A stretch of DNA of 60,451 nucleotides, the filler included, from Dugesia japonica (lineage: Eukaryota), in assembly GCA_001938525.1 (NCBI GenBank). It is 5 parts of 5 records of this genome, joined end to end, with 100 filler letters (N's around TTAATTAATTAA, not from the genome) between each part and the next. Parts side by side here need not be neighbours in the genome. Positions count along the whole stretch, not along the records: positions 15,294 to 26,744 come from MQRL01490706.1; positions 26,845 to 41,606 come from MQRL01586283.1; 3 more parts are not named here. One strand, given 5' to 3'. The notes beneath the pieces were generated by a model that worked only from the letters and a program-made list of their open reading frames with translations, ran no database searches and had not been told where the DNA came from. Position 1 is the first letter of the stretch, and each line of letters begins with the position of its first letter. The translations under genes and the position numbers were made by a program. Positions 25,091-26,904 of this stretch are shown one piece after another.

Positions 25091-25976
25091 TTTCGAGATT
25101 GAATTCTATTTTCGGGTTTTTGTTTATTGTTGAGGGTGTTTCATTTCCTAAGTCTCTTGGTTTTATTATCAGCGAGTCGATGTTTTCTTGATTACCGGTT
25201 ATTAGTTCAATGATTTCTGATTCTTCTGATGTATAACTTATTCCACTTGATCTGTTACTACCTACTGGGGTTTTACTGGATGTTGTTTTCCGGTTAGTTT
25301 TGTTTTCTTTACCACTCGGACTACTGTTTGAACTGATGGTTTCTAACGTTTTACCGCGGCTGGTTTGTCGAATTCTGGTTTCTTGAGCGAACAAATGTTC
25401 TCTTCCTGGTCCAAATAGAGTGACGATTTCTTTTGCTTCCTTGATGACCTGTGTCGGGTAAGTTGGGTTTCTTTGAGAATTGAACTTGGGATAGATAATC
25501 TGGATGTGTTAGACCTTGTAAGTGGTTTTCTATTTTCTGAGTCGGAATCTATTTTGTCAGAGTCCGGCTTTTTGGTTGCTTATTGCGCTTCGGCTTGCTT
25601 TTGTGTTATTTTGTAGTTTTAACTTTCTAGAATAAAAATTTACTTCTAATTGTCTTTACTTAGGAGACAATCACTCCTCTTCCTGATTTTAAACTTACTT
25701 TAATATCATGCTCACGTTTTGGGGAATTTACTTTGCGCTTGCAAAAACCTTTTTATAAATATATTTTTCTTTACATAAACTAATCATCATTGGTTTGGGT
25801 ATATAAAAACGCAAGTGGGCAAGTAATGATCCCACATATTCTTTGAATCCGGATGGGTGTGTCAGTAATACCAAATACTCGGAGTAACCCTAGCTCAAGG
25901 CACTATCTACGGGGTTTGCATAAAAATATGACTTTCAATGCGCTATTTTAATAATATAAAATGACATTTTTAGGTA

Positions 25977-26159
25977 ATGCCCTCTGACCTATTCCCCACG
26001 TTAAGATTAATACGCAAGGGAAGAAAAGCATCCTGGTTAAGACAACTGCTTGCCCATAAGTTATCACGAGGTCGGATCAAGCACCCTGACGAAACAGATT
26101 TAAGTTGCCTGGCCGAGATGTTCCCGCTACCATCGAGAGTAGACATTGATGAGGAATAA
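25977..26159 (+). CDS. Terminal cassette ORF a' (60 aa, intact), antisense to the adjacent element
   Basis: catttttag acceptor 3 nt before ATG; homologous to 8172-8356. Confidence 0.6.
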   Translation: MPSDLFPTLRLIRKGRKASWLRQLLAHKLSRGRIKHPDETDLSCLAEMFPLPSRVDIDEE

Positions 26160-26288
26160 TGACTTTTTAACAGTGCAATTTATTTAGTTAAATAAAATGA
26201 TAAGCCTGATTAAATCTCTAATTTAATTTTTTCTTTTTTATTGTTGTATAGACTAGCATCTTAAATTAAATCAACTTTGTGTTACAGG

Positions 26289-26639
26289 ATGGAATCCATA
26301 TGGGAAAGGACTATTGACAGGAGAACTCGCAGAATAATTTTTAGGCGTCATCATAACCCGCAAAACCGGGATGCCGGAATATAAGTTGATAGTTCAAATT
26401 TACTACCGGTAGAAGCTGATGTAACTCGTATTCAGAATTTTGGCGAGAGGCTTAATTTTCAACAATGGAATGGGCCAGTACGCAATCACACAACTGCGTT
26501 CCAGTATCAACCTCCGGCCCCACCCCCAGTCGTGCAGGCTTTCATTAATAATTTGCTCTGGGGCGTTAGGGAACCATCTGGGATTGATGATGCCGAGAAT
26601 AGCGCTCCTGCTATGGACCCTACGACTAGTCCGCAGTGA
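26289..26639 (+). pseudogene. Terminal cassette ORF b' (one internal TAA)
   Basis: gttacag acceptor 1 nt before ATG; homologous to 8474-8758; another acceptor (tttccttcag) at 26715 before the gap. Confidence 0.65.
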
Positions 26640-26904
26640 CTCCTTTGTTTGATAATTTGAATGTAGAAAGAAATACATGTCATTACTTTATATTATTTTG
26701 CTTTGTTTCCTTCAGGGTTGTACTAAAGGAAAATTTTTCATGTGNNNNNNNNNNNNNNNNNNNNNNNNNNNNNNNNNNNNNNNNNNNNTTAATTAATTAA
26801 NNNNNNNNNNNNNNNNNNNNNNNNNNNNNNNNNNNNNNNNNNNNATATATAAACTTTCAAAACAGGTCCAAAGTCTAGAACACCGAAATACTGGAACACT
26901 TTGT

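Follow-up and report, generated by a model that had tools for sequence, protein, structure and literature searches.

Giant Ty3/gypsy retrotransposons are among the commonest planarian repeats and are targets of PIWI (PMC8532177). Elements of the Burro / GYPSM1 type exceed 30 kb in total, with an internal region of up to 25 kb and a polyprotein of ~4,900-5,100 aa (PMC6431247). Several kb of the giant gypsy internal region lack explanation. Extra open reading frames (ORFs) are possible on either side of gag-pol and in either sense in gypsy elements (PMC11963269), and accessory ORFs in retrotransposons with long terminal repeats (LTRs) have recently yielded real biology, for example the sORF2 fusogen of the MDG1 group. 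Here we describe an array of micro-genes in a giant Ty3/gypsy element of Dugesia japonica (assembly GCA_001938525.1), found in a window of 60,451 nt (the whole stretch analysed) in which the pieces concerned measure 11-15 kb. The array is a selected set of genes without a named family, and it lies antisense and adjacent to gag.

The element resembles Burro / GYPSM1 (PMC6431247) in what may be a very long single polyprotein (4,873 aa in Burro against ~4,740 codons here, an estimate obtained by summing lengths from two different broken copies), its three CCHC knuckles (two or three in Burro / GYPSM1), a possible dUTPase-like stretch between protease and reverse transcriptase (RT) that is weak here, and space for accessory ORFs upstream of gag, one of which is reported in D. 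tigrina. It differs in that no MATH, BIR, ankyrin, BCL2 or env match is seen from gag to protease and two proteases precede RT. None of the three BURRO1 primers (PMC8532177) matches the window with up to 3 mismatches, although they may target parts that are absent from it. The element is Burro-like in build, but given that env and the MATH, BIR, ankyrin and BCL2 domains were not found and the primers are unmatched, we do not file it as Burro1. The flatworm GAG-ENV-POL errantiviruses carry a gB-type env in frame between gag and pol (PMC13524379), whereas env was not found here; the LTR search in that study left out pairs more than 14 kb apart, so its negative outcome for planarian elements is uninformative.

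The excerpted Burro text of PMC6431247 describes no antisense micro-gene array. Small accessory ORFs (70-110 aa) under purifying selection do occur upstream of gag in the MDG1 group (412, Mdg1, Stalker, Blood; PMC11952523), where an internal poly(A) site yields a short sORF1 mRNA and sORF1 is nuclear. Compared by description, these are two sense, unspliced ORFs, with sORF2 a membrane fusogen, whereas our array has at least four antisense ORFs with a splice acceptor each and no membrane segment. The plant Retand/Grande/RIRE2 elements (PMC11963269) share family-wide antisense coding in the gypsy internal region, with a proposed regulatory role; their antisense ORFs, however, lie between pol and the 3' LTR, are mostly longer than 600 bp and encode TRP28, in contrast to micro-ORFs upstream of gag without a known domain. 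HBZ of HTLV-1 and related retroviral antisense genes (PMC10186651) offer a spliced antisense transcript, a bidirectional promoter and a regulator of the element, all of which are predicted here; HBZ is a single gene reading from the 3' LTR into the provirus, whereas several genes here read from gag toward the likely 5' LTR. In springer-subclade errantiviruses an upstream exon supplies part of the AUG of env (bioRxiv 10.1101/2023.08.03.551782), as AU/G in one sense gene, compared with a predicted A/UG in several antisense micro-genes. What sets the array apart from each of these systems is that it is at once antisense, upstream of gag, made up of four or more micro-genes and equipped with an acceptor for every one of them. 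The literature searched holds no description of it; Grohme 2018 (the primary Burro paper, with supplement) and Repbase, both outside that search, may already show the ORFs. What the present analysis adds is the orientation of the array to gag and a match to a primer-binding site (PBS).

The window consists of five pieces of AT-rich eukaryotic DNA joined by artificial N44-TTAATTAATTAA-N44 linkers at 15194-15293, 26745-26844, 41607-41706 and 50226-50325. The array occurs twice, as ORFs a-d in piece A (1-15193; copy A) and as a' and b' in piece B (15294-26744). Piece A holds a further N gap at 10252-10327 and is gap-free over 1-10251. A previous reading of the sequence alone (the sequence-only reading) had noted that both cassettes lie on the plus strand although the neighbouring pol genes are opposite. 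The strands are indeed so (pol is plus in piece A and minus in piece B), but because the pieces were joined artificially, strand relations and adjacency across the linkers are meaningless and the two arrays are not neighbours.

The ORFs of piece B are genuinely homologous to those near 8.2-8.7 kb in piece A, a' to a and b' to b, with order and strand retained. DNA alignments of a'/a and b'/b give z 13.0 and 11.1, and none of 100 shuffles reaches the score. At the protein level the DETDL part of a' and the b'/b pair are reached by 0 of 500 shuffles and the TLRxIR part by 1 of 500. The spacer between the ORFs is unalignable (z 0.5, with 28 of 100 shuffles reaching the score). The proportions of silent and replacement differences (pS, pN) are 0.82 and 0.40 for b'/b (61 codons) and 0.89 and 0.31 for a'/a (25 codons), with an RT control at 0.70 and 0.08 (145 codons). 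As silent sites are saturated and replacement sites are not, the array proteins have been under past purifying selection. On homology, spacers and selection the sequence-only reading is therefore borne out, and all of the protein motifs it quoted are present, LW.IR of copy A lying in a second frame (8573-8755). Its acceptor-adjacent ATGs apply to a'; in copy A, b shows TG instead of ATG at the acceptor, and the frame opened by the ATG of a (8175) is not that of the motifs.

Both array copies in the window are decayed. In copy A, frameshifts or stops interrupt each of the four ORFs, and the single stop in b' has a different letter within the codon in most related contigs of run X1, in which contigs were counted at a cut-off of 82% identity. 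In the same run a-d are multi-copy, with a depth of mostly 17-61 against 1-8 in adjoining single-copy stretches. The predicted proteins measure 60-120 aa, have a mostly basic N-terminal half and contain no membrane segment (highest 19-residue hydropathy 0.94). The structure model of a' is helical at low confidence (pLDDT 58), and another array model reaches pLDDT 55.

When b of copy A was compared by phmmer with 1.84 billion proteins, three matches at E up to 0.001 resulted. One of these, P0002, is an intact 94-aa homolog on a single 512-bp metagenome contig (E 1.6e-9, 47%); compared with b', 35 of 89 residues are identical (0 of 1000 shuffles). P0003 and P0004 (E 4e-4), long repeat proteins with six short matches each, were discarded as chance. 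No family was obtained for the array ORFs from Pfam or from PHROGs, where d alone has a weak match of unknown function (E 0.004), and the PDB sequence search returned no match. Matches in the ESM Atlas were at 0.85 or less in one search and absent in another. Word-index protein searches for array homologs yielded 0 of 14 candidates and then P0002 alone of 5, and none were found in viral and metagenome contigs. Neither Rfam (on 1-31500) nor a tRNA scan gave a match.

In piece B the array lies antisense at 267 bp from the likely gag ATG, within a gap-free contig (Table 1). The predicted gag intron opens with a GTAAGT donor, and its removal would join the first exon to the gag frame, in which this copy has three stops. 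The intervening gap is likely to be a divergent promoter, as judged from its sequence. It contains TATA-like sites at 25754, 25800/25802 and 25955 (plus) and at 25757 (minus); shuffles contain 0.8 on average and only 1.6% of 2000 reach four. The TATA-like TATATAAAA that the sequence-only reading had placed at 25800 is thus present without being unique. The gap also holds three candidate plus-strand donors (25823, 25865 and 25884), each with an A ahead of it.

Run X1 placed 2669 contigs on 24700-26744 with all 30 bins covered. Depth is 357-49,235 over gag against 59-3312 over the array and gap, and 23 related contigs depart from the window sequence at 25712, just upstream of the gag ATG. At this cut-off, the drop in depth and the divergence at 25712 indicate that the gag start is common to a high-copy family but the stretch upstream of it only to a smaller set. 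It might be argued from this that the array is a separate, non-autonomous passenger with its own PBS and leader, recombined with or placed beside different gag-pol copies, the more so as no gag lies left of a in piece A. Faster divergence at the 82% cut-off, however, also lowers depth (a fast-evolving gag bin has 357), variant contigs cover the promoter gap, and motifs next to the array are common to the gag start. We consider a passenger improbable.

At its other end the array of copy A runs into a far higher-copy stretch (9625-10140), and 39 contigs diverge at its edge, 10048. Read on the minus strand, the edge at 10047 matches the 3' end of tRNA-Gln, as taken from the PBS table in the supplement of PMC13524379 and a probe in PMC11421004, and the last array ORF ends ~290 bp from this match. 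With one missing base allowed, the 3' 12-mer of tRNA-Gln has one match in the window against 0.02 expected. An 18-nt tRNA-Gln probe scores 12 at this site, ranking first of 1377 TGG sites (next 8.5, mean 4.3, sd 1.0). No polypurine tract precedes 10047, with 9 purines in 18 positions. Loose contig ends beyond 10047 agree at 0.53 against 0.43 +/- 0.015 for simulated unrelated flanks (maximum 0.49 in 2000 trials), which suggests related sequence, that is an LTR, beyond the PBS match. A nested small LTR element in piece A served as positive control: its 5' LTR is followed by TGG, and a purine tract precedes its 3' LTR. Between a' and gag no PBS-like site was seen, the two minus-strand TGG sites there both being more than 2 mismatches away from the tRNA table by eye. 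A tRNA-Arg-like site on the plus strand at 9753 was rejected; it is without TGG and falls within a reading frame continuing d.

Because of the tRNA-Gln match and the missing polypurine tract, the 8.1-10.25 kb region is more likely the head (5' internal region) than the tail of a minus-strand element. Taken together with the agreeing loose ends and the lack of a PBS between a' and gag, the simplest order is LTR, PBS, leader, antisense array, promoter and gag. Our preferred reading, held with a probability of roughly 0.55, is that the array sits between PBS and gag, so within the 5' internal region and outside the LTR.

Several observations weigh against this placement. PBS and gag are seen in different copies and never on one contig, piece B ending at 26744. 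The PBS match has one missing base and one extra, its tRNA was chosen post hoc from a table of ~190 ends, and the ungapped PBS search alone is not significant (3 matches against 1.97 expected). The same letters can also be read as a terminal ...CCCA on the plus strand. The simulation of loose ends assumes a formula for agreement, and a shift of the first letter or two would raise the value. In addition, the block after the PBS is no more structured than shuffles (z -0.3).

The sequence-only reading preferred antisense genes inside a multi-kb LTR, the region of ~7-15 kb being the 3' end of a minus-strand relative placed tail to tail with the plus copy. Of this, the antisense position relative to gag and the location in a multi-copy element stand, and the array of piece A probably belongs to a minus-strand element and not to the neighbouring plus-strand pol; the LTR and the tail-to-tail arrangement are weakened by the features of the 10047 edge. 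If the array did lie antisense within such an LTR, U3 of a minus-strand LTR (3' or solo) would begin at 10047 and the gag ATG of piece B would lie in or right behind R-U5. The contigs diverging at 10048, where the minus strand begins with TG, would fit, as would the orientation, which is consistent with piece B, and the minus-strand ORFs at 13.7-14.6 kb, whose third-position bias (0.71) is like that of pol (0.68-0.74). Yet the ORFs of 13.3-15 kb are unlike any family ORF and lie beyond the N gap and a nested element, and the start of the edge is better read as a PBS than as an LTR end, there being no purine tract before it and no other PBS between a' and gag. We therefore hold this arrangement to be unlikely, though it is the chief alternative to a position between PBS and gag. 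Apart from AT-rich background, the stretch right of the PBS does not resemble the 3' end of the plus copy.

An array in sense within a single 3.2-kb plus-strand LTR (6868-10047), closing the plus element of piece A and spliced like the U3 genes of complex retroviruses, seems very unlikely. Its attractions are a purine-rich tract (13 of 18) before TGGG at 6868, the CCCA at the end of the block, an inverted identity of 11 of 16 when the ends are compared by eye, 4 identical bases flanking each end, and the gap-free sequence across it. It would make piece B an inverted or rearranged subfamily, yet the arrangement of piece B is multi-copy, with all bins covered and 9-15 variant contigs at the listed sites in 25816-26034. 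Moreover, the gag-start motif in piece A indicates the minus strand, and 7045-8076 is at single-copy depth whereas the array is not. Long inverted termini with genes reading outward, the second proposal of the sequence-only reading, agree with the strand relations alone (sense after pol in piece A, antisense before gag in piece B) and are hardly credible: a DDE integrase with an H2C2 finger is encoded, no inverted homology between the ends was found, and a motif shared by the two pieces is found on opposite sides of the array, to the left in B and to the right in A. A DDE integrase goes together with direct LTRs.

These shared motifs are two, the gag-start motif and a block of 60 bp, and both rank first among ~760 windows. 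One has z 4.9 (1 of 200 shuffles), the other z 3.9 (1 of 500 shuffles locally but 84 of 200 over 3.8 kb). If real, they would place the array between two directly repeated leader/gag-start units, an arrangement consistent with its capture by duplication; we treat them as unexplained rather than demonstrated. An AT-rich palindrome at 9788-9830, directly after ORF d, carries AATAAA on both strands and could terminate transcripts in either direction.

Neither array nor block homologs were found in 6860-8170, 10050-10411 and 13343-15193 or in any of 33 further loci examined. An isolated match of b at 13-15 kb (0 of 100 shuffles) was rejected, as it runs across stops and is one of 18 tests. Third-position strand bias (0.38-0.73 on 23-50 sites) gave no verdict on the orientation of the array.

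The four ORF-start acceptors of copy A top the 45 YAG sites by T content (15, 12, 12 and 10), with one other site tying at 10. Three of them precede TG, against 162 of 2581 (6.3%) in the background, and b and c are in frame after this TG. In piece B the acceptor of b' at 26251 is the most T-rich of 26. Since three ORFs start with TG right after the acceptor, alternative splicing from the divergent promoter is likely. A poly(A)-type hexamer follows most array ORFs, and the gaps between ORFs are under 300 bp. We propose that the element strand runs from the 5' LTR through PBS(Gln) and a conserved leader to the antisense ORFs d, c, b and a, which would be followed by the divergent promoter and gag-pol. 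A plus-strand promoter in the gap would give a short first exon ending in A, which may be spliced to one of several acceptors; with a poly(A) signal of its own, each ORF would yield one small mRNA. Such splicing would complete the start codon (A/TG) of b, c and probably d in copy A. For gag-pol, the source would be either the minus-strand side of this promoter or a spliced genomic RNA.

Some points argue against such expression. AATAAA is frequent on both strands of this AT-rich DNA and is thus weak evidence, the acceptor of a' ranks only 8th-9th of 26 by T content in piece B, and the frame after TG is not in frame with d. RNA reads on 24700-26744 numbered 14, 3 and 1 in three runs, none of them 95% alike and none with a splice joint. 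On 6400-10251, 56 + 71 reads and 35 contigs fell mostly on the conserved block, again without a splice joint. Since the reads come from no more than 6 to 26 in 100 of any raw run (about 25, 25 and 6 in the three runs on piece B) and the copies are decayed, the RNA result is neither proof nor disproof. A read pile at 8774-8807 was discounted as expression, since the match is AT-rich, spans 33 bases and is loose at both ends. Three reads share a loose end at 25692, a number too small for a start-site call.

Expression might instead follow another route, with the array transcribed as an operon that spliced-leader trans-splicing, and not alternative cis-splicing, resolves into mRNAs. An acceptor before and a poly(A) signal after each ORF, at such short distances, would suit this, and trans-splicing and operons are reported in flatworms including Schmidtea (PMC12582326). 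With a leader ending in AUG (known from a cited title), however, b and c of copy A would be out of frame, as TG follows the acceptor, and no leader-like loose end is listed at any acceptor, though RNA coverage is near zero. We think this route quite unlikely.

The products of the array would act inside the cell as accessory regulators of how the element itself is transcribed or silenced. We advance this role tentatively, at somewhat less than even odds, on account of their size, the lack of a membrane segment, the mostly basic N-terminal half and the likeness to 412 sORF1 and HTLV-1 HBZ; the argument on function is one of analogy only, which counts against it. A wider and doubtful proposal is that of a giant animal retrotransposon with a two-way genome. 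Its packaged RNA would carry a multi-gene antisense array in a kilobase-long leader, and gag-pol and the array mRNAs would arise separately from one internal back-to-back promoter. One first exon would be spliced to four or more alternative last exons and give the first letter of the start codon, and the resulting new micro-protein family would tune or protect the element, for example against PIWI silencing. If true, an antisense, alternatively spliced array would add a new protein family and a regulatory layer like that of complex retroviruses to giant gypsy elements. Such elements would also make their own antisense RNA, which bears on the origin of the piRNAs against them.

Table 1. Features of the array and of the giant element in pieces A and B of the window.
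Position	Strand	Feature	Details	Reading
25977..26159	+	ORF a', 60 aa, intact	Own ATG 4 nt past acceptor AG at 25973; AATAAA at 26191	
26289..26639	+	ORF b', 116 codons	Single in-frame stop at codon 32; acceptors 26251 and 26287	
26715..26744	+	Acceptor and ATG at contig end	Acceptor second most T-rich of 26; cut by linker	Start of a third ORF likely
25710..25976	.	Gap between gag ATG and a' ATG	267 bp	Putative divergent promoter
25630..25709	-	Likely gag start	First exon of 11 nt opened by an ATG at 25709; GT-AG intron of 69 nt, 25698-25630 (donor at 25698, acceptor ending 25630)	Predicted splicing
8171..9759	+	Homologous array, ORFs a, b, c, d (piece A)	Acceptors 8171, 8473, 8945, 9440; AATAAA at 8419, 8785, 9800, 9820	
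9866..10047	-	High-copy conserved block	Depth up to 2744 per bin; tRNA-Gln PBS match 10047-10032	Likely PBS and leader
9844..9944	.	Two motifs common to 25699-25726 (gag start) and 25843-25904	Same strand and order	Perhaps left over from a duplication of the leader/gag-start unit
15294..25629	-	Decayed giant Ty3/gypsy polyprotein region	Gag to start of integrase; cut at linker	
554..6674	+	Second family copy	Protease to integrase, then further ORFs (3.1 kb) on the 3' side; pol 74% identical in nucleotides to that of piece B across 2.3 kb	

The element of piece B is Ty3/gypsy by its Gag and its protease-RT-RNase H-integrase order. The series comprises Gag with three CCHC knuckles (23650-24834), ~5 kb of unassigned ORFs, two aspartic proteases in series ahead of RT (17700-18450, minus), a weak dUTPase-like stretch (PF00692, E 0.015, under the curated cut-off), RT, RNase H and the start of integrase. 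Pfam E-values from gag to integrase are 2e-6 for zf-CCHC, 3e-7 for RVP, 6e-28 for RVT_1, 1e-37 for RT_RNaseH_2 and 8e-18 for Integrase_H2C2. No direct LTR pair of the giant element occurs within the window, in which both copies are truncated. The open stretches scanned gave no Pfam match for MATH, BIR, ankyrin, BCL2 or SUMO-like domains, although broken frames may hide weak ones. Between gag and protease no env family match was obtained, and the open stretches contain 8 cysteines in 2,180 residues. By eye, 21961-23269 (minus) in the gag-protease region shows ubiquitin-like repeats; Pfam gives them no support and a PDB search with one stretch returned nothing relevant.

The plus-strand copy in piece A is likely a different element from the owner of array a-d. 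Downstream of its integrase, ORFs at 4603-6674 (plus) show hydrophobic segments resembling signal peptides or membrane spans, coiled-coil-like stretches and a proline-rich end, and have no family match. Bases 1-551 (plus) resemble another, shorter gypsy element at 29183-29706 (minus; 83%), and the giant family begins at 554; the switch reflects either a nested insertion or a chimeric contig. A short multi-copy stretch at 6658-6915, with a purine tract ahead of TGGG at 6868, may represent the polypurine tract and LTR start of the plus-strand copy. The nested small gypsy element at 10412-13342 has 102-bp LTRs that are 95% alike and start with AGT rather than TG, and its RT region is apparently largely deleted. 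Decayed minus-strand ORFs at 13329-14571 have a pol-like codon bias, without a match to the giant family or to Pfam above noise.

When longer proteins were searched for gag, none of 1348 candidates proved to be one, and an RT tree of 12 rows (10 of 33 loci and the two window copies) gave no supported placement. One metagenome relative (L001:3-11517), whose RT is 60% identical and in which no array homolog was found, contains an open polyprotein of 2368 aa with protease, RT, RNase H, integrase, a second protease (after integrase, unlike piece B), ankyrin repeats and a likely membrane end. It is followed downstream by sense ORFs of 491 aa, 443 aa (RNase T-type exonuclease, E 1.5e-11) and 204+ aa (weakly ubiquitin-like).

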